From: Centroscyllium fabricii | Lineage: Eukaryota | DNA length: 64,000 bases | Reading direction: 5' to 3' | Assembly: GCA_051313645.2 (NCBI GenBank) | Contig: JBNRSN020000009.1 | Span: 216,814,001 to 216,878,000, forward strand | Shown here: in pieces, positions 3,215 to 45,589 of the stretch | How positions within the stretch are numbered: position 1 is the first letter of the stretch | Layout: every line of letters begins with the position of its first letter | Notes under the pieces: generated by a model | The model's input: the letters and a program-made list of their open reading frames with translations, nothing else | Databases searched by the model: none | Told to the model about the DNA's origin: nothing | Program-made: the position numbers and the translations under genes

Positions 3215-4243
3215 GGAATTAACGGCTCTTTTTCCGAGTGGTAGGCAGTGACTAGTGGGGTACCGCAGAGATCGGTCCTTGGGCCCCAGCTATTCAAAAT
3301 ATATATTAAATGATCTAGACGAAGGAACTAGATGTAATATCTCCAAGTTTGCAGATGACACAAAGCTGGGTGGGGGCATGTGTGCTGTGAGGAGGATGCT
3401 GAGAAACTCCATGATTTGGACAGGCTAGGTGATCGGGCAGAAGCATGGCAGGAGCAGTATAATGTGGATAAATGTGAGGTTATCCACTTTGGTGGCAAAA
3501 ACAGGAAGGCAGATTATCTGAATGGCAGTAGATTGGGAGAAGGGGAAGTGCAACGAGACCTGGGTGTCCTTGTGCACCAGTCGCTGAAGGTGAGCATGCA
3601 GGTGCAGCAGGGTATGTTGGCCTTCGTAACAAGTGGGTTCGAGTACAGGAACAAAGATGTCCTGCTGCAGTTGTACAGGGCCTTGGTGAGATCAGAGTAT
3701 TGTGTGCAGTTTTGGTCACCTTATGAGGAAGGATGTTCTTGCCATGGAGGGAGTGCAGCGAAGATTCACCAGACTGATACCTGGAATGGCAGGAAGGACG
3801 TATGAGGAGAGATTGGGTCGATTGGGCTTATACTCGCTGGAGTTTAGATGAATGAGAGGGGATCTCATTGAAACTTATAAAATTCTGACAGGACTGGACA
3901 GACTAGATGCAGGAAGAATGTTCCCGATGGTCAGGGAGTCCAGAACCAGGGGTCACAGTCGAAGGATAGGGGGTAACCCATTTAGGACAGAGATGAGGAG
4001 GAATTTCTTCACCCAGAGAGCGGTGAACCTGTGGAATTCTCTATCACCGAAGGCCGTAGAGGCCAATAGATTAAATATATTCAAGAAGGAGTTAGATATA
4101 TTTCTTAAGGCTAAAGGGATCAAGGGATATGGGGAGAAAGCAGGGACAGGGTACTGAATTTCAATGATCAGCCATGATCACATTGAATGGCGGAGCAGGC
4201 TCGAGGGGCCGACTCCTGCTCCTATCTTCGATGTTTCTATGTT
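3215..4243 (+). mobile_element. CR1 LINE (HER1-like), 5'-truncated, RT C-terminus plus 3' tail
   Basis: Peptides [45 protein letters not shown]; tail atgatcagccatgatc...ctcctgctcctat...tttctatgtttc; frameshifts. Confidence 0.92.
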
Positions 4244-4599
4244 TCAACAGGCAGACAGTGTCTCGGTTTAACGTTTCTATAGGTATATAAAAAGGAAAAG
4301 ATTATTGAAAGTAAATGTGGGTCCCTTACAGACTGAGACAGGAGAAATTATATTGGGGAATAAGGAAAAGGCAAAGAAATGAAACAAATACTTTGTGTCC
4401 ATCTTCACGGAAGACGTCGCAAAAAACTTCCCGGAAATAGTGGCGAACCAAGGGTCTCATGAAAATGAGGAACTGAAAGATATTAGCATTAGTAAAAAAT
4501 ATAGTACTGGAGTAATTAATGGGACTGAAAGCCAATAAAATCCCCTGGACCCGATGGCCTACATTGTAGAGTTTTGAAAGAGGTGGCTATAGAGATAGT
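4061..4599 (+). repeat. Copy 1 of a ~540-bp direct duplication flanking the Gypsy element
   Basis: Near-identical to 9383-9917 (about 4 substitutions and one 4-nt indel by eye). Confidence 0.95.
4278..4599 (+). mobile_element. CR1 LINE fragment (target of the Gypsy insertion)
   Basis: CR1 ORF2-like sequence (aaatactttgtgtccatcttcac, ccctggacccgatggcctaca) continuing at 9598-10121 and 11282-12565. Confidence 0.85.
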
Positions 4600-4890
4600 T
4601 GTGGTAACCCTTTTATGTAACTGTTTTACCACTGTATTATTGTGCCAATAATGGGCTGTGCAGATGTAAGGCACAGCCCTGTAACCTGTGTAATACTGTT
4701 GGGAGCCAGGTCAGCCACACCTCTAACTCCTCCCCCAGGTGAGGCCCTTTATAGGTGGAAACTGACCGAGGCTCCTCATTCCTGTACAGAAGTTCGTTCC
4801 GGAGGGTAGCTCCGTTCTTAGCGATTAAAAGCCTTTAGTTTCGGTAACTACTCGTCGACTCTTTTAATCCGAGATATTGACGATACGTCA
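4600..4890 (+). repeat. 5' LTR (291 bp, TG...CA)
   Basis: TGTGGTAACCC...TACGTCA; TATA-like tttata near 4748; ATTAAA at 4824-4829; 4 visible differences from the 3' LTR. Confidence 0.93.
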
Positions 4891-4914
4891 ATTTTAATCG
4901 CTAAGTATTTTTAA

Positions 4915-7900
4915 ATGGAGAGCAGCGCAGTTAAACCTGAGAAGCTGGACATCAGTCCCCAGGACCTGGCCGCTGCTACCACGTTCGAACACTGGTTCGG
5001 CCTCCTGGAGGCCTACATGGACGCCGCCAAGGCTACATCGGACAGGAACAAACTGCAGGTCCTCCGGTCGAGGATCTCCAGCAGGGTATTCTCCCTCATC
5101 AGAAACGCCTCAACCTACACAGCGGCTGTACTACAACTACGAAAATGCTACGAGCGCCCGGTCCATTCGGTCTACGCCCGACATGTGCTTGCGACCAGAT
5201 CTCAGCTACCGGGTGAGTCCAATGAGCAGTTCGAGCAAGCGCTCCAGGCCCTGGTACGGGTCTGTGGCTGCCAAGCCAGAACAGCTGAAGAGGAGGCGAA
5301 TCTCCTCGTTCGGGACGCTTACGTTACGGGACTAAGGTGTGTGGAAGCCCGCCAGCGGCTACTGGAAAGAGACACTCTGTCCCTCGAGGAGGCGATTAAG
5401 ATAGCCAACTCAGTAGAGGGGGCCCGAAACAAGTTACAGGCGTACAGCGGCACTAACCCGCAAGCCTACGACATATGGGCCGCGCCACAACGGGCCCAGG
5501 CCTGGGCAGCACCACAACGGGCCGAGACCCCCACGATGGCTGCGACAGCCACAAAAGATAAGCGCTGCTACTTCTGCAGCCAGGGACTGCACCCAAGAGC
5601 GAGATGCCCAGCCAGGACAGCGACCTGCGAGAGATGCGCTAAGAAAGGTCATTACGCTAAAGCCTGCAGATCAGCTCCAGCAGCGCCTAACCCAAGGTAC
5701 AACAGTGCAGCCTGTGAGAGCACCGACAGACACCAGGTAAGCTGCAATAGCAGCGCGATCCAGCGACGGTCCGGGGGTAGACAACAAGCGCCCCCATCTC
5801 CCACCCCGATGCGGCAAAGGCCGGCCAAGCGCGACCCAACGCGGCCGGCTGCGTGCGAATCACGGGCACCGCCAACCCGACCACCACGGCCCTCTGCGTG
5901 CGAATCACGGGCACCGCCAACCCGATCACCGCGGTCCGCTGCGTGCGAATCACGGGCGCCGCCAGCGCGCTCACAGCGGCCCACCATGTGCGAACCCCCG
6001 GCGCCGCCATTTTGTATCCAGGGCCCCTCCATGTGCGCCGCCATTTTGTATCCAGAGCCCCGCCATGTGCGGGCCAGGGGCGCCGCCATCTTGTATCCAG
6101 GGCCCCACCATGTGCGAGCCAGGGGCGCCGCCATCTTGTGTACAGCCCCGACCAGCAAGGGCCCCACGCACACGGAAACACACGGCTGCGGCAGCCAGAA
6201 TCAGAGTGAACCAGGACAGGCCACATACCCTGTCTAACTCTATAATGACAATTAAGATTAACGACTACACTGTTAACTGCCTTTTTGACACAGGAAGCAC
6301 TGAGAGTTTCGTACACCCCGATACAGTGCAGCGCTGCGGACTGCAGGTCCGGCCCACTAACTACCAAGTCTCCCTAGCTTCACAGTCCCACACCGCGGAC
6401 GTCACCGGCTACTGCTCCGTCACGCTCACCGTCAAGGGGCGCGTGTACCATAATTTTAAATTGTATACCCTCCAGCAGTTGTGTGCCCCAGCCTTACTAG
6501 GTTTGGATTTCCAGTGCCACCTCAAGAGCGTGACAATGGAGTTCGGCGGGACCTTGCCCCCCCTCACCGTCAGTAGCCGGGACAATCCCTTCCCAAAGCG
6601 GAGCCCGGCCTGCGGCCTGTCCACCCTGAAAATCGACCGCCCCTCGCTGTTCGCCAACCTCGATCCGAAGTGCAAACCCATTGCTACTAAGAGTCGGCGG
6701 TACAGTGAGGGGGATCGCACGTTTATCAGGTCGGAGGTCGGGCGGATGCTGAAGGAGGGGATAATTGAAGCCAGCACCAGCCCCTGGCGTGCCCAAGTTG
6801 TAGTGGTGAAGTCTGGCGAGAAACAGCAGCTGGTTATCGATTACAGCCACACTATCAACCGCTACACCGGGCTCGACGCCTACCCCCTTCCCCGCATCTC
6901 AGACATGGTCAACCAGATCGCCCAGTACAAGGTGTTCTCCACGATCGACCTTAAATCGGCGTATCATCAGATCCTGATTCGGAAAGCCGACCGCCCCTAC
7001 ACCGCCTTCGAGGCGAACGGTCGGCTCTACCACTTCCTCCGGGTCCCCTTTGGCGTGACCAACGGAGTGTCAGTGTTCCAACGGGAGATGGACCGTATGG
7101 TTGACCAAAATGACTTGCAGGCCACTTTCCCTTACCTGGACAACGTGACCATCTGCGGCCACGACCAGCAGGACCACGATGCCAATCTGGCCAAATTCCT
7201 CGACAAATGTGTCTTTAATACGGACCGGCTCGCCATCCTCGGATACGTGGTGGAGAACGGGGTCCTCGGCCCCGACCCACAGCGTATGCGACCCCTGCAA
7301 GAACTGCCCCTACCTCACAACCCCAAAGCCTTGAGGAGATGCCTAGGATTTTTCTCCTATTATGCACAATGGGTCCCACAGTTCGCAGATAAGGCTAGAC
7401 CACTCCTCAAGGCTGCCGTCTTCCCCCTTTCTGTAGAAGCCCAAACGGCATTCACAAGGATAAAGGAAGATATTATCAAGGCGACCATGCTCGCTGTTGA
7501 TGAATCCATCCCTTTCCAGGTGGAGAGTGACGCTTCGGACTTTGCCCTTGCTGCCACCCTGAATCAGGCAGGCAGGCCCGTAGCGCTTTTCTCCCGCACC
7601 TTACAGGGACCCGAAACTCGCCACTCCGCAGTGGAAAAGGAGGCCCAGGCCATCGTGGAGGCAGTGCGCTACTGGCGTCATTACCTGGCCGGTAAGCGTT
7701 TTACCCTGCTCACCGACCAATGGTCGGTGGCGTTTATGTTCAATAATAAACAACGGGGTAAAATCAAGAATGATAAGATCCTGCGGTGGCGGATCGAACT
7801 CTCGACTTACGAGTATGACATTCTTTACTGACCAGGTAAACTCAATGAACCCCCGGACGCACTGTCCAGGGGAACGTGTGCCAGTGCCCAGCTAGACCGG

Positions 7901-9103
7901 CTGAAGGACCTCCACGACCGCCTTTGCCACCCGGGTGTCACCAGACTCGCCCACTTCGTTAAGTCCCGTAGCCTCCCCTACTCCATCACAGAGATCAAGG
8001 CTATGGCCCGAGAGTGCCCTGTCTGCGCCGAGTGCAAACCCCACTTTTTCCGGCCAGACACGGCGCACCTCATTAAGGCCACCCGCCCCTTTGAACGTCT
8101 CAGCGTGGACTTCAAAGGCCCCCTCCCTTCCACCGACCGCAACTCATACTTCCTCACGGTAGTGGATGAGTTCTCCCGCTTCCCCTTCGCCTTCCCCTGC
8201 GCAGATATGACGAGCGCAACGGTGATCAAACACTTCACCACGCTGTTCGCCATTTTCAGTCTCCCCAGCTACATCCATAGCGACCGGGGGTCATCGTTCA
8301 TGAGCGATGAACTGCGCCAGTTTCTGCTCCAGAAAGGGGTTGCCACGAGCAGAACGACCAGTTATAACCCCCGGGGGAACGGCCAGGTAGAAAGGGAGAA
8401 TGGGATCATTTGGAAGGCGGTCACCCTGGCTCTCAAGTCCAGAGGCCTTCCAGTGTCCCATTGGCAGGCAGTCCTCCCAGACGCGCTGCACTCTATACGC
8501 TCTCTATTATGTACTGCTACTAACGCCACCCAGCACAATCTGATTTTCTCCTTCCCCAGGAAATCGACTTCGGGGACAGCTCTTCCTCCATGGCTGACAA
8601 CTCCGGGGCCGGTTTTGCTTAGAAGACATGTCCGAAGCCACAAGACAGACCCCCTGGTGGACAAGGTACAGCTCCTACACGCAAACCCACACTATGCATT
8701 CGTGCAGTTCCCGGACGGGCGTGAGGACACCGTGTCCATCAGGGACCTGGCTCCCGCAGGAAGCACCACCGCAGAGCCCCTGGCCGGCCAGCAGGCCGCT
8801 CAGCCACTGCATCCAGAAAACCCACCAGACACACAATGGCCCCTGAGCTTCCCAGAGCCCCGGCAGTGGCCAGTACAGAACTACGACCCGGACCAGCCGG
8901 ATCCATCGCCACCAGAAGCCACGGCACCCGATCAGCGGTCACCACCGGCAGATGCGAGTGGTACGAACCAGGAGGCACCACCACCAACACCGGAACGCCG
9001 GCGGTCCTCCAGGCAGACACGACCGCCGGACAGACTGATCATGAACTGTTCGACCCATTCACCCCCCCCCCCCCCGGACTTAAAATTTTCAAGAAGGGGT
9101 GAA
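4915..9103 (+). pseudogene. gag-pol polyprotein of the Gypsy element (disrupted)
   Basis: Gag with CYFC..H..C and CERCAKKGHYAKAC; protease LFDTGS; RT LPRI, PFG, YLDN; RNaseH SDASD, EKEA; IN HHCC, DFKGP/HSDRG/QVERENG. Frameshift from a shortened linker repeat near 6030, TGA at 7829-7831 (likely CGA>TGA in YRPGK), apparent short in-frame RT deletion near 7200. Confidence 0.9.
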
Positions 9104-9383
9104 TGTGGTAACCCTTTTATGTAACTGTTTTACCACTGTATTATTGTGCCAATAACGGGCTGTGCAGATGTAAGGCACAGCCCTGTAACCTGTGTAATAC
9201 TGTTGGGAGCCAGGTCAGCCACACCTCTAACTCCTCCCCCAGGTGAGGCCCTTTATAGGTGGAAACTGACCGAGGCTCCTCATTCCTGTACAGAAGTTCG
9301 TTCCGGAGGGTAGCTCCGTTCTTCGCGATTAAAAGCCTTTCGTTTCGGTAACTACTCGCCGACTCTTTTAATCCGAGATATTG
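9104..9383 (+). repeat. 3' LTR, lacking the terminal 11 nt
   Basis: Matches the 5' LTR up to ccgagatattg; terminal acgatacgtca absent. Confidence 0.93.
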
Positions 9384-9917
9384 GCCAATAGATTAAATAT
9401 ATTCAAGAAGGAGTTAGATATATTTCTTAAGGCTAAAGGGATCAAGGGATATGGGGAGAAAGCAGGAACAGGGTACTGAATTTCGATGATCAGCCATGAT
9501 CACATTGAATGGCGGAGCAGGCTCGAGGGGCCGACTCCTGCTCCTATCTTCGATGTTTCTATGTTTCAACAGGCAGTGTCTCGGTTTAACGTTTCTATAG
9601 GTATATAAAAAGGAAAAGATTATTGAAAGTAAATGTGGGTCCCTTACAGACTGAGACAGGAGAAATTATATTGGGGAATAAGGAAAAGGCAAAGAAATGA
9701 AACAAATACTTTGTGTCCATCTTCACGGAAGACGTCGCAAAAAACTTCCCGGAAATAGTGGCGAACCAAGGGTCTCATGAAAATGAGGAACTGAAAGATA
9801 TTAGCATTAGTAAAAAATATAGTACTGGAGTAATTAATGGGACTGAAAGCCAATAAAATCCCCTGGACCTGATGGCCTACATTCTAGAGTTTTGAAAGAG
9901 GTGGCTATAGAGATAGT
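9383..9917 (+). repeat. Copy 2 of the ~540-bp flanking duplication
   Basis: ggccaatagattaaat...gagatagt repeats 4061-4599, after which the CR1 continues (ggatgcattgg). Confidence 0.95.
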
Positions 9918-39715: not shown

Positions 39716-42491
39716 ACAGGAGGCAGCATTCGCAATTACTAAAAGCACCGCTCCACATTTGGCCACAGATCGGAGTACAGATAGCTGCACTGGAAGGGCA
39801 GGGAGCATTAGTGAGGGTGGGGTAGTGGGAGAGAAAATAGATGTCTCAGCTTTGGACAAGTTGGAGTTCATAAATGAGAGGCTGGGAAGGATAACATTGG
39901 AGAAATTGAGCCTCAAGGTGACCAAGTGTGGATAAGAGATTCAGTGATGGGTGTGAAGTTGGGCAATGTCACTGTCTTGGTCTTGATTACAATGTGGGAA
40001 TTGAAGCTGAACTCTGGGCCAAGGTTTCACACTGTCTGATTTGACCAGCGTAGCCAAGGAGGGGCACAGACTCTTTATAGTGGGTCTGAAAACAAAGACT
40101 TCAGTATTCCTCATTGAGCCGCAGGAAATTTTGACTAATCCACAACTTGACATCAGACAGGCACACTGTCAGCATAGAAGCGGCAGCAACATAAAACTTG
40201 ATTTCATCATACTGATGTGTCTGGAATTACATCTCTGAGAAACAGCATGCAGAGGAGGAAGGAGGGATCAAGGAGAGATTCTGGAAGGACTCCAAAAATG
40301 ACCATGCAGAAATAAGAGAAGCTATTGCTGGAGGTGCACTGCTGTGTTTGAACAGGTTGGAGTGGAATCACATGAGGGCAGCCCCGCAGAGATAGGCAAT
40401 GAAGGAGGATGGTATGGCAACTGTATGACCGGCTGTGTAGAGGTCAAGAAAGAACTCCGAACTTGCTTCCTTTTTTAAAATGCCGTTCACAACCTGAGGA
40501 CATCCCAAAGTGCTTTACAGCCAATGAATTACAAGGAGAGATAATGCACCATGGTCACAGTCAGAGGATGTTATCAGCACTAGCATTCTTTACTAGGACA
40601 TCAAAAGTGACAAAATTAGGTTTTATAAAAAATTTAATAGATTAAAAATTAATTTCACTGTGACCTGATTAAATGTACTCATCGACTTGTCTGTTGGGTC
40701 TTTCAGTGCTTCCCTTAGCTGTTTTATTTCAAGGTTTCAGCCAATTTAATACTCCTAACATCTGACTGGATATCCCCCACCCCTGCTCTCTCCCCCCCAC
40801 CCCCACAGAGTGTTTACAACATCTCCTAGCATGCACCATAATTCTTTACCTTTTTGAAAAGGACTTTGGAACAAACTGCAGTGAATGCTCAAAGCTTTAT
40901 TTCGATAAGTGTCACATTATGAACAAAAACTCATTCTGTTATGATCGTACACAACAACTGAGATTAACACCTGAAGTTTCTTTGTTGACAGAAAGCAAAA
41001 TAACCTTTATTTCAAGAATGGATTTATTTTTTTCAGCGGAAAGATTGAAGATGATTTCAATTTAATTAACCAGGAGATTTTAAACATAACTGGAAGATGA
41101 ATTTTAACTATTAATGGTGTACTTGTGTGCATGTGCATTTATGAGAATTTGTTTATGGACATTTGTGTTTATTAAAATCTGTATGTCAGCAAATTCACTA
41201 ATGGTGCACTAAGTGTTTTATGTCAGGAACACAAAGACAGGAATCTCTGATGATGAGAAACGCAGTGGGAGTAGGCACAGGAGTGGTGTGAATAGAAGAA
41301 TGAAATGTGGGAACTCAGTGGGGAGGTTATCAGATCCCAGCAACCCCCAATGCTTCCAGTCCCCCTCACCAGGACACAACCCCCAATGCTTCCAGTCCCC
41401 CTCACCAGGACACAACCCCCAATGCTTCCAGTCCCCCTCACCAGGACACAACCCCCAATGCTTCCAGTCCCCCTCACCAGGACACAACCCCCAATGCTTC
41501 CAGTCTCCCTCACCAGGACACAACCCCCAATGCTTCCAGTCCCCCTCACCAGGACCCCCCCCCCCTCAATGCTTCCAGTCCCCCTCACCAGGACACACCC
41601 CCCAATGCTTCCAGTCCCCCTCACCAGGACACAACCCCAATGCTTCCAGTCCCCCTCACCAGGACACCCCCCCCAATGCTTCCAGTCCCCCTCACCAGGA
41701 CACCACCCCCAATGCTTCCAGTCCCCCTCACCAGGACACCCCCCCCCCTCAATGCTTCCAGTCCCCCTCACCAGGACACAACCCCCAATGCTTCCAGTCC
41801 CACTCACCAGGACACCCCCCGCAATGCTTCCAGTCCCCCTCACCAGGACACCACCCCCAATGCTTCCAGTCCCCCTCACCAGGACACCACCCCCAATGCT
41901 TCCAGTCCCCCTCACCAGGACACCCCCCCCCCTCAATGCTTCCAGTCCCCCTCACCAGGACACAACCCCCAATGCTTCCAGTCCCACTCACCAGGACACC
42001 CCCCCCTCCCAATGCTTCCAGTCCCCCTCAGCAGGACACAACCCCCAATTCTTCCAGTCCCCCTCACCAGGACACAACCCCAATGCTTCCAGTCCCCCTC
42101 ACCAGGACACAACCCCCAATGCTTCCAGTTCCCCTCACCGGACAACCCCCCCAATGCTTCCAGTCCCCCTCACCAGGACACAACCCCCAATGCTTCCAGT
42201 CCCCCTCACCAGGACACCCCCCCCCCCAATGCTTCCAGTCCCCCTCACCAGGACCCCCCCCCCCCGCAATGCTTCCAGTCCCCCTCACCAGGACACCCCC
42301 CCCCCAATGCTTCCAGTCCCCCTCACCAGGACACCCCCCCCCCAATGCTTCCAGTCCCCCTCACCAGGACACAACCCCCAATGCTTCCAGTCCCCCTCAC
42401 CAGGACACAACCCCCAATGCTTCCAGTCCCCCTCACCAGGATACAACCCCCAATGCCTCCAGTCCCCCTCACCAGGACACCCGCCCCAATG

Positions 42492-43163
42492 GAAGCAGAA
42501 GACACACCCCCATCTTCATCCAAGGGGCTGAGGTGGAAAGGGTGTCCAGCTTCAAGTTCCTCGGGGTCCACATCTCGGAAGATCTCTCCTGGTCACTAAA
42601 CACCTCCTCTCTGGTTAAGAAGGCCCAACAGCGCCTGTACTTCCTAAGGAAGCTGAAGAAAGCCAGGCTGTCATCTGGCATCCTCTCCAACTTCTACCGC
42701 TGCACAATAGAAAGCATACTGACCAGCTGCATCACTGTCTGGTATGGTAATTGCACTATCTCGGACCGGAAAACCCTGCAGCGGGTAGTCAAAACTGCCC
42801 AACGAATTACCGGTACACAGCTACCGTCAATGGAAAGCATCTACCTCAAACGCTGCTTACGGAGGTCTATGAACATTATTAAAGACCCCACACACCCCAG
42901 CCACAGTCTGTTCGCCCCCCTGGAGACGCTACAGAGTAATTCGCACCCGCACGACTAGATTTCAGAACAGCTTCTTCCCCAGGGCTGTCAGACTCCTGAA
43001 CTCTAAAAAAGAAACTCCGGTACCTGCACGCCTGATAATGTACTTTACTGTATGCAATTTGCATGTAATTTATTTGCACTACTCTCGGGAGAGTCGAGTC
43101 TTCGTCTCGTTGTATTGTACTAGTACTCTGCAATGACAATAAAACTTGAATTGAATTGAATTG
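42492..43163 (+). mobile_element. Rex1/Babar LINE 3' fragment, copy 1
   Basis: VERVSSFKFLGVHISEDLSW..KKAQQRLYFLRKL..FYRCTIESILT; (TTGAA)n tail. Confidence 0.92.
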
Positions 43164-43502
43164 AATGCTTCCAGTCCCCCTCACCAGGACACAACCCCCA
43201 ATGCTTCCAGTACCCCTCACCAGGACACCCCCCCCCCCCCCAATGCTTCCAGTCCCCCTCACCAGGACACCCCCCCCCCCCCAATGCTTCCAGTCCCCCT
43301 CACCAGGACACAACCCCCAATGCTTCCAGTCCCCCTCACCAGGACACAACCCCCAATGCTTCCAGTCCCCCTCACCAGGACACAACCCCCAATGCTTCCA
43401 GTCCCCCTCACCAGGACACAACCCCCAATGCTTCCAGTCCCCCTCACCAGGATACAACCCCCAATGCCTCCAGTCCCCCTCACCAGGACACCCGCCCCAA
43501 TG

Positions 43503-44174
43503 GAAGCAGAAGACACACCCCCATCTTCATCCAAGGGGCTGAGGTGGAAAGGGTGTCCAGCTTCAAGTTCCTCGGGGTCCACATCTCGGAAGATCTCTCC
43601 TGGTCACTAAACACCTCCTCTCTGGTTAAGAAGGCCCAACAGCGCCTGTACTTCCTAAGGAAGCTGAAGAAAGCCAGGCTGTCATCCGGCATCCTCTCCA
43701 ACTTCTACCGCTGCACAATAGAAAGCATACTGACAAGCTGCATCACTGTCTGGTATGGTAATTGCACTATCTCGGACCGGAAAACCCTGCAGCGGGTAGT
43801 CAAAACTGCCCAACGAATTACCGGTACACAGCTACCGTCAATGGAAAGCATCTACCTCAAACGCTGCTTACGGAGGTCTATGAACATTATTAAAGACCCC
43901 ACACACCCCAGCCACAGTCTGTTCGCCCCCCTGGAGACGCTACAGAGCAATTCGCACCCGCACAACTAGATTTCAGAACAGCTTCTTCCCCAGGGCTGTC
44001 AGACTCCTGAACTCTAAAAAAGAAACTCCGGTACCTGCACGCCTGATAATGTACTTTACTGTATGCAATTTGCATGTAATTTATTTGCACTACTCTCGGG
44101 AGAGTCGAGTCTTCGTCTCGTTGTATTGTACTAGTACTCTGCAATGACAATAAAACTGGAATTGAATTGAATTG
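43503..44174 (+). mobile_element. Rex1/Babar LINE 3' fragment, copy 2
   Basis: Same breakpoints as copy 1, offset 1011 bp, 5 visible substitutions. Confidence 0.92.
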
Positions 44175-44619
44175 AATGCTTCCAGTCCCCCTCACCAGGA
44201 CACAACCCCCAATGCTTCCAGTACCCCTCACCAGGACACCCCCCCCCCCCCCCCCAATGCTTCCAGTCCCCCTCACCAGGACACAACCCCCAATGCTTCC
44301 AGTCCCCCTCACCAGGACACAACCCCCAATGCTTCCAGTCCCCCTCACCAGGACACAACCCCCAATGCTTCCAGTCCCCCTCACCAGGACACCCCCCCCC
44401 AATGCTTCCAGTCCCCCTCACCAGGACACATCCCCCATACTCCAGTCCCAGATCCGAGGTCCCCCTCAGTGCTCACAAATCCCTAACCCACACTCCCAGA
44501 CCTTTGTATCACACATCATGCTTGGAACTCACCTGTTCTTCCTACTCCTCCACTGCTGCCTGACCCCAGGACCACCCCCAATGTTCCGACACCCTGTGAC
44601 CTTCCTCTCCAATGCTCCG

Positions 44620-44720
44620 AGATCCCAGGACCCCTCTGCCAGTGATACCAGATCCCAGGAACCCTCTGCCAGTGATACCAGATCCCAGGACCCCTCTGCC
44701 AGTGATACCAGATCCCAGGA
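44620..44720. repeat. 30-bp tandem repeat, ~3.3 copies
   Basis: agatcccaggacccctctgccagtgatacc repeated. Confidence 0.85.
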
Positions 44721-45589
44721 TCTGACCCACTGTTCGGAGATCACTCTGCTTAGCCCCTAGACCCTCTCCCATCACAACTAAACCCCAGGATCCCTTTAAT
44801 GTACGACTAAATCAAAGATCCCATCCCAGTCCTGCCAAGCCCCCAGATCCTCTTTCCAGTGCACCCAGATCCTAATACATCTCCCTGAACATAGATAAAT
44901 CAGTGATCCGATAACATCACTTGGACATAACAATTATAAAGTCATTGACTTATAGTAAACAATGCAACAAGAGATCTGCTAGTATTATAAGAGAGCACTT
45001 TTCCTGCAAGGTCAAACATTTCCTGTAGCGTTTTCCCTACCACTTTGTTGGTAACACCCCTATTATAAAACAGGGTATTCTCCAATTCAAGAGCAATACA
45101 CACACACAGAATAATGCTTATCTTAAATAGATTTGTACTATAGCCCATGTATCCCAGTGCTGAGGAACCTGCCCCGTTTATATTGTATGGCAGTTTCCAC
45201 AACATGGGACAATGAAAAAATAACTACACAGATCCACCATTATCTATTTCAACCAGCTTAAGGACAAGTGGTCAAGCTAGTGAGCAAGCATTTGCAAATT
45301 GGACTGTGTCAACTGACAGCCTCTCAGCCCACTGGCATCCAGAAAATATGGCAGCCTTCACCTCTGGCAGCAATATTTAGATCACTGCTCAGGATACATT
45401 GGAGTGTCGGTGATATATCAGAGCATGACAATGAAACACAGCAGAGTTTAAATGAATACATGTTACAGCAAGGGCCAAGTTATAGCACAGCATTAAAAAG
45501 TGAGGCATAGAAGAAATTGTAGTACATCTACAATCTTTATAGAATAGGCCTGTGAAAGTTGGAGAGTAGTATACGAAAATATTACAGTG

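Follow-up and report, generated by a model that had tools for sequence, protein, structure and literature searches.

Self-priming of reverse transcription has been placed in the Tf1/sushi group, in Tcn1 and in the plant TAR copia elements (PMC3601003, PMC6934838, PMC4600332, PMC11042837, PMC6317226, PMC6238403). Among Ty3/gypsy elements it has so far been tied, in the portions of the literature available to us, to Tf1/sushi chromoviruses with a primer at the 5' end (PMC7175516, PMC11042837). Similarly, wherever the available text gives the position of the primer, it lies at the 5' end of the RNA (PMC3587641, PMC13524379, PMC7175516, PMC5006619, PMC10085805, PMC5341516 and other papers cited). 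Tf1 and Tf2 of Schizosaccharomyces pombe, Tj1 and the Tf1/sushi elements use no tRNA; their primer-binding site (PBS) lies 1 nt past the LTR and is complementary to their own LTR, a helix stands beside the PBS and the primer is copied into the cDNA (PMC7175516, PMC10085805, PMC11042837). The element described here has a PBS of this kind at this position and is predicted to resemble them in the other respects. No report of self-priming in its lineage was found in the literature text searched, which lay outside Repbase and most subscription journals. Repbase entries reportedly call some animal Gypsy families self-primed.

The window, a stretch of 64,000 nucleotides from the 7.2-Gb genome of Centroscyllium fabricii, carries a 4.8-kb Ty3/gypsy LTR retrotransposon with TG...CA LTRs, gag followed by protease, reverse transcriptase (RT), RNase H and integrase, and a polypurine tract. 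The best relative with a solved structure is Ty3 RT. The annotated parts are as follows.

4600-4890, + strand: 5' LTR, 291 bp, TG...CA, direct repeat with 9104-9383
4748-4755, + strand: TATA-like box TTTATAGG, 30 nt above A4778, called from sequence
4776-4780, + strand: Inr-like TCATT, with A4778 the probable transcription start as judged from fold-back copies
4778-4816, + strand: unpaired leader of 39 nt before the primer segment, its reverse complement found behind the PBS in faulty copies
4817-4830 (core 4818-4830), + strand: candidate self-primer segment, including ATTAAA at 4824-4829, with a predicted cut after 4830
4831-4833, + strand: GCC directly behind the primer end, predicted start of the repeat for the first-strand jump (putative role)
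4861-4869, + strand: 9-nt alternative partner of 4823-4831, not conserved
4876-4892, + strand: hairpin spanning the LTR end, which in the predicted fold stacks on the primer duplex
4892-4905, + strand: PBS without TGG, 1 nt (A4891) beyond the LTR end
4915-6237, + strand: gag ORF of 440 aa with its ATG 10 nt past the PBS, coding for two zinc knuckles of CCHC type
5042-5048, + strand: ACAGGAA within gag, a microhomology at which most start-site read-through copies rejoin
5741-9124, + strand: pol frame that codes for protease, RT, RNase H and integrase
9091-9103, + strand: polypurine tract and 2-nt spacer
9104-9383, + strand: 3' LTR without its final 11 bases and with 4 differences to the 5' LTR

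Since the 3' LTR of the window copy lacks its final 11 bases, the LTR end was set from other copies, 29 of 30 of which have a 3' LTR that reaches a ...CGTCA-type end (4890), with point changes in a few of them, and then diverges. A 5-bp target duplication was seen in 6 of 7 matched copy pairs. The window copy is defective, with a stop in pol at 7832, and it is shorter than other copies near 7202. A duplication of about 538 bp of upstream LINE-derived sequence flanks the element (window 4062-4599 and 9384-9917), its second copy taking the place of the missing 11 bases at the end of the 3' LTR and continuing through the empty insertion site. The gag-pol overlap (window 5825-6150) holds 45-bp and 39-bp repeats that vary among copies. 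Elsewhere in the window, a tandem array with a 29-bp unit (1615-2136) lies inside a region of short inverted repeats noted at 500-1200, and a strongly C-skewed stretch with overlapping long ORFs (41213-44760) is probably another retroelement. In the genome at large, several copies seem to have inserted within copies of the same or a related family, as their 3' flanks consist of gag or pol (L032-L060). The closest named proteins come from catshark and rays, and protein relatives were found in sharks, rays, corals, a sea cucumber, crustaceans, a spider and a nematode; the viral contigs searched held no close relative.

As the preliminary description had stated, no TGG follows the 5' LTR, which the single base A4891 separates from the PBS. 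The PBS (TTTTAATCGCTAAG) and 4817-4830 are exact reverse complements, giving 14 of 14 Watson-Crick pairs with a mismatch at either side; when the LTR was put through 10,000 dinucleotide shuffles, no complement as long as 11 nt arose (maximum 10). The overlap with the ATTAAA signal was also borne out: 4824-4829 lies inside the paired segment and is the only AWTAAA of the LTR. The perfect 14-nt complement described earlier stands for the window copy, but not as a trait of the family, in which the fourteenth pair is mismatched in 6205 of 11,908 copies; the conserved duplex is 13 bp long (4818-4830 with 4892-4904) in about 11,900 copies. The LTR/PBS letters at the fourteenth pair are C/G in 2481 copies, C/A in 6205, T/A in 3205 and T/G in 17, counted with a C/G search pattern that lacked the three-base anchor present in the other three. 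A G at PBS base 14 thus occurs nearly only together with an LTR C (2481 against 17, where independence would predict 676). This linkage fits copying of the primer into the PBS, and descent alone may account for it.

Compensation within the family was sought at 4820/4902 and rejected, as 22 single changes and no compensating double were found; these changes look confined to single LTRs, since copies with C in one LTR show A in the other. The A-to-C change (window 4820, 9324) was counted in 30 of 7012 3' LTRs and 2 of 2503 5' LTRs, and the mirror T-to-G change (window 4902) in 20 of 2503 PBS (Fisher P 0.008, in a comparison that does not include the background rate). The hairpin across the LTR end and the 9-nt partner cttttaatc, both noted in the preliminary description, are present, the latter pairing with 4823-4831. 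In sister families the hairpin is kept with one pair altered. The 9-nt motif is intact in 93 of 108 LTR reads and shortened by a sublineage variant in 13; its proposed role as a competing, conserved switch was rejected, the complement being only 4-7 nt long in 23 of 25 families.

Covariation of the LTR and PBS segments, proposed at the outset as a check on the pairing, was found both in this genome and beyond it. Five sister families of the same genome change both arms jointly and each carries its own mirror PBS, the segments being TTTAGTGAATAAAA, TTTTGTTAATAAAA, TTTAGCTAATAAAA, TTTAGTCAATAAAA and TTTAGCAATTAAAA. A Gag alignment search gave 249 metagenome loci, the best 80 of which formed 27 clusters, 24 with sufficient upstream DNA. 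Scored by the best member per cluster, 18 of these 24 showed a perfect complement of 11-18 nt within the upstream 110 nt, starting one base past a CA, and 6 had less than 11 nt; at least 9 nt was reached in 20 of 24, and at least 10 nt at 0 of 437 control positions. Where a contig held both LTRs, the CA before the pairing start was at or near the LTR end. Pairing is therefore kept with changed letters in 18 of 24 clusters and in the five sister families.

A wider set of 25 families and subfamilies was chosen for having the duplex, so that self-pairing is there by construction and six members are close kin. These 25 have 25 distinct PBS, and pairing the segment of one family with the PBS of another reaches 12 nt in only 4 of 600 combinations. 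All four pair types are seen at positions 6-11 of the duplex. The paired segment ends in AWTAAA or AWTAAAA in 20 of the 25, and RCC stands directly behind the primer end in 23; the five families with no canonical hexamer at the primer end include one with AATAAA in the loop. An additional helix behind the primer, looked for because a three-duplex 'pretzel' surrounds the PBS in the Tf1/sushi group, was enriched overall (sum 91 versus 66, 0 of 500 shuffles), but not in the sublineage of the window. A matching host tRNA had been named as one of the observations that would speak against self-priming. None was found, either as an Rfam match over 4700-5000 or, in a partial test, as a tRNA gene at 30 of the 72 non-canonical genomic sites of the PBS 14-mer. 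A host tRNA is implausible as primer because it would have to follow 25 different PBS.

Faulty copies of the element provide information on the start of its RNA. At one locus (L071) the sequence behind the PBS is not gag but the LTR part above the primer segment, in reverse complement. A genome-wide pattern search returned 42 such fold-back places of PBS plus inverted LTR, and all 42 were read. In 16 of them (one ambiguous) the inverted sequence extends as far as 4778/4779; 12 stop short of this point, 3 reach slightly beyond it and 11 span the whole LTR. Two near-identical copies start at A4778. Among the 16 start-site fold-backs, 13 rejoin gag at the 7-nt microhomology, which could by itself create a junction hotspot. 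Ten of these thirteen carry a T mirroring A4778, where ordinary gag copies have C in 50 of 50. Junctions of this kind number 25 genome-wide and are drawn from several sublineages, and the same 4778-type end was reached through other acceptor sites at three loci (L089, L096, L213). A search with the leader only gave 133 matches; of 30 read, 10 showed a junction and 20 were ordinary LTRs with point changes.

A similar picture emerged in sister families that differ in their leader sequence. Eleven of their 30 fold-backs end 40-41 nt up, via six junctions, at the A of a TCAGT that lies 31 nt below TATAAA; 7 of the rest end earlier and 12 run for at least 98 nt, with none between. For four of these copies, which the script had extended to 43 over a mismatch, the break was read at 40. 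Some 9-10 of 29 distinct junctions fall within one base of the Inr, and for 10 of 29 a flat null gives P near 2e-7, with counts entered by hand and a drop-off that need not be flat. No fold-back copies were found by pattern search in sushi-type elements, a result that is uninformative as a control.

The simplest reading of the fold-backs is that plus-strand synthesis did not stop at the PBS and went on until it reached the 5' terminus of an RNA begun at the Inr. Together with the spacing of 30 nt between TTTATA and the Inr base, they place the probable RNA start at A4778, upstream of the primer segment by 39-40 nt. They tell where the RNA begins and not how long the working primer is, and they could arise by annealing to a second RNA; the whole-LTR class requires DNA snap-back only. 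Two 521-bp palindromic mini-elements (L084, L088), composed of LTR, PBS, inverted leader and U3 and bounded by 5-bp target duplications, were read as snap-back products inserted by two U3 ends. Three double fold-backs (L100, L374, L375) have an inverted leader that turns again at 4782 within the palindrome CTGTACAG.

The covariation and the fold-back ends at A4778 both support the earlier proposal that the primer is a segment inside the RNA, some 40 nt downstream of its start; the element very probably primes itself from an internal LTR segment, the PBS pairing within its own RNA. Among other explanations, the one that survives best, though it is quite improbable, is a Tf1-like arrangement in which the first base of the paired segment is also that of the working RNA, by initiation or by trimming, so that the primer would have 13-14 nt and no leader. 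The Tf1 primer is formed by the RNA's first 11 bases (PMC7175516) and alternative start sites exist in Tf2 (PMC5341516), according to the parts of these papers at hand, and ordinary copies of the present element retain a complement of only 13-14 nt. A comparison within the genome argues against such a start. Chromodomain elements are found there too, and in 7 of the 8 fetched that were readable an 11-nt LTR segment mirrors the PBS. Four sushi-type elements have TATAAA 29 nt above the primer segment, which places their primer at the start site as in Tf1. In the lineage of the window, the TATA lies 69-71 nt above the segment (TATAAA at 71 nt in four sister families) and the hexamer lies within the segment, and the fold-back copies end 39-41 nt further up than a Tf1-like start would have it. 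In the young sushi-type chromoviruses at L293-L300, which carry an 11-nt 5' self-primer, primer and PBS vary between families yet stay paired.

It is very unlikely that the duplex serves only to regulate polyadenylation or packaging and that priming falls to a fragment of a host tRNA or to another small RNA. Half-tRNA priming is described for copia lineages in the accessible part of PMC6317226, and a canonical poly(A) hexamer lies inside the paired segment in 20 of the 25 families; against this, the 25 different PBS each match their own LTR, the pairing begins exactly at the required primer end, and the Rfam search and the partial survey of 14-mer sites point to no host small RNA. Equally slight is the chance that the 3' copy of the segment supplies the primer (the RNA tail closing a circle) or that trimmed short 5'-poly(A)-site RNAs do so in trans: a short 5' RNA used in trans would give identical fold-back copies, but the 3' copy has no 5' end at 4778, where read-through nonetheless stops, whole-LTR fold-backs end at the LTR start with no run-on into pol, and the 5' copy sits 61 nt from the PBS.

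Under internal self-priming, the following course can be proposed. The RNA would begin at A4778, and 4818-4830 would pair with 4892-4904 beside the LTR-end hairpin, a pairing for which covariation was found and a fold that is predicted. A cut at AUUAAAA/GCC (4830/4831) would free a 3'-OH, most likely through the RNase H of the element by analogy with Tf1, in which an RNase H cut frees the primer (PMC7175516, in the portion available). The primer would then be the front ~53 nt of the element's own RNA, ending just behind the poly(A) hexamer. RT would copy from 4891 to 4831, yielding a strong-stop DNA of 61 nt, and the first jump to the 3' end of the RNA would rely on no more than the 10-30 nt that separate 4831 from the poly(A) site. 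Plus-strand synthesis would copy the primer back into the PBS, usually keeping 13-14 nt; the DNA copy of its primer that Tf1 cDNA retains (PMC11042837, in the part available) provides a precedent. Occasional run-on to the 5' end of the RNA may have produced the fold-back copies observed in the genome.

The preliminary description had also suggested that the duplex masks the 5' poly(A) signal. That the duplex hides this signal, and so allows full-length RNA to be made, is plausible, with the balance about even. What makes masking attractive is that the RNA carries the PBS partner at its 5' end and nowhere else. Its geometry fits 20 of the 25 families, and some families depart from it. A poly(A) signal that lies 46 nt behind the cap may in any case be weak. 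A coupling of priming to polyadenylation control, as had been proposed, falls slightly short of an even chance. The full combination, in which this widespread animal lineage evolved self-priming independently of Tf1/sushi and the duplex masks the poly(A) signal until a cut leaves a capped primer of ~53 nt and a repeat of 10-30 nt, is offered tentatively, as the chances are somewhat against it. If it holds, priming and polyadenylation control would form a single switch.

With respect to classification, a quick tree gathered the members of the clade, which share 45-82% identity in RT-RNase H, on a single branch (SH-aLRT 100) and placed both a chromovirus and a two-knuckle TGG family of the same genome off it. 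This tree gave long-branch warnings, included no named reference sequences, and its rows L296, L298 and L299, labelled by chromovirus loci, are neighbouring elements of other families. The chromovirus and the element are 29% identical in RT-RNase H, and a Pfam search found no chromodomain in the element's pol. The Mag lineage (A, B and C clades) is characterised by a Gag with two CCHC-type knuckles, a short LTR, a 5-bp target duplication and a tRNA PBS starting with TGG. The element shares the first three of these traits, so that the earlier label 'Mag-like' holds for the two Gag zinc knuckles; it does not hold for the PBS, which has no TGG, or for the RT-RNase H, which is only 27% identical to that of the two-knuckle family with TGG-type PBS (L364, L368). 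We take the latter family to be Mag-type by its traits. An abundant two-knuckle Gypsy family with LTRs of ~205 bp and a TGG-type PBS is seen at L363, L364 and L368. Judged by these comparisons, the element would be neither a chromovirus nor Mag proper; most likely it works like Tf1, yet is not a member of the Tf1/sushi group. The available part of PMC6238403 names the clades Cigr-1, Tor2 and MolGy, and three peptide motifs were absent from 5 of the 6 supplements of that paper.

These observations indicate that a self-priming signature occurs in a separate and abundant animal Ty3/gypsy lineage with a different layout. LTR finders that require a tRNA PBS miss such elements, and the elements would escape silencing by tRNA fragments. 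With faulty copies, transcription starts and primers can be mapped from nothing but genome sequence, and these copies also point to the base at which the predicted cut may be sought.

Compared with the systems described so far, the primer of this element is predicted to be internal, behind a leader of 39-40 nt, and pairs over 13-18 nt, whereas the Tf1/sushi primer consists of the first 11 nt. It would end at the poly(A) hexamer, unlike in the four sushi-type elements of the same genome, in which AATAAA lies 348-399 nt below the primer. The lineage also differs from Tf1/sushi chromoviruses in its loop of 24-72 nt and the lack of a chromodomain. In HIV-1, the poly(A) hairpin hides a 5' AAUAAA-type hexamer by base pairing; the partner of the hexamer in the present element is the PBS, found at the 5' end only, so that masking would be asymmetric, unlike that by the HIV-1 hairpin. 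For the TAR lineage of plant copia elements (Houba, Osr-1) and the Tcn1 clade, self-priming was predicted from LTR-PBS complementarity; these belong to another superfamily or to the chromoviruses, and the available part of the source gives no internal primer or poly(A) overlap for them (PMC6317226).
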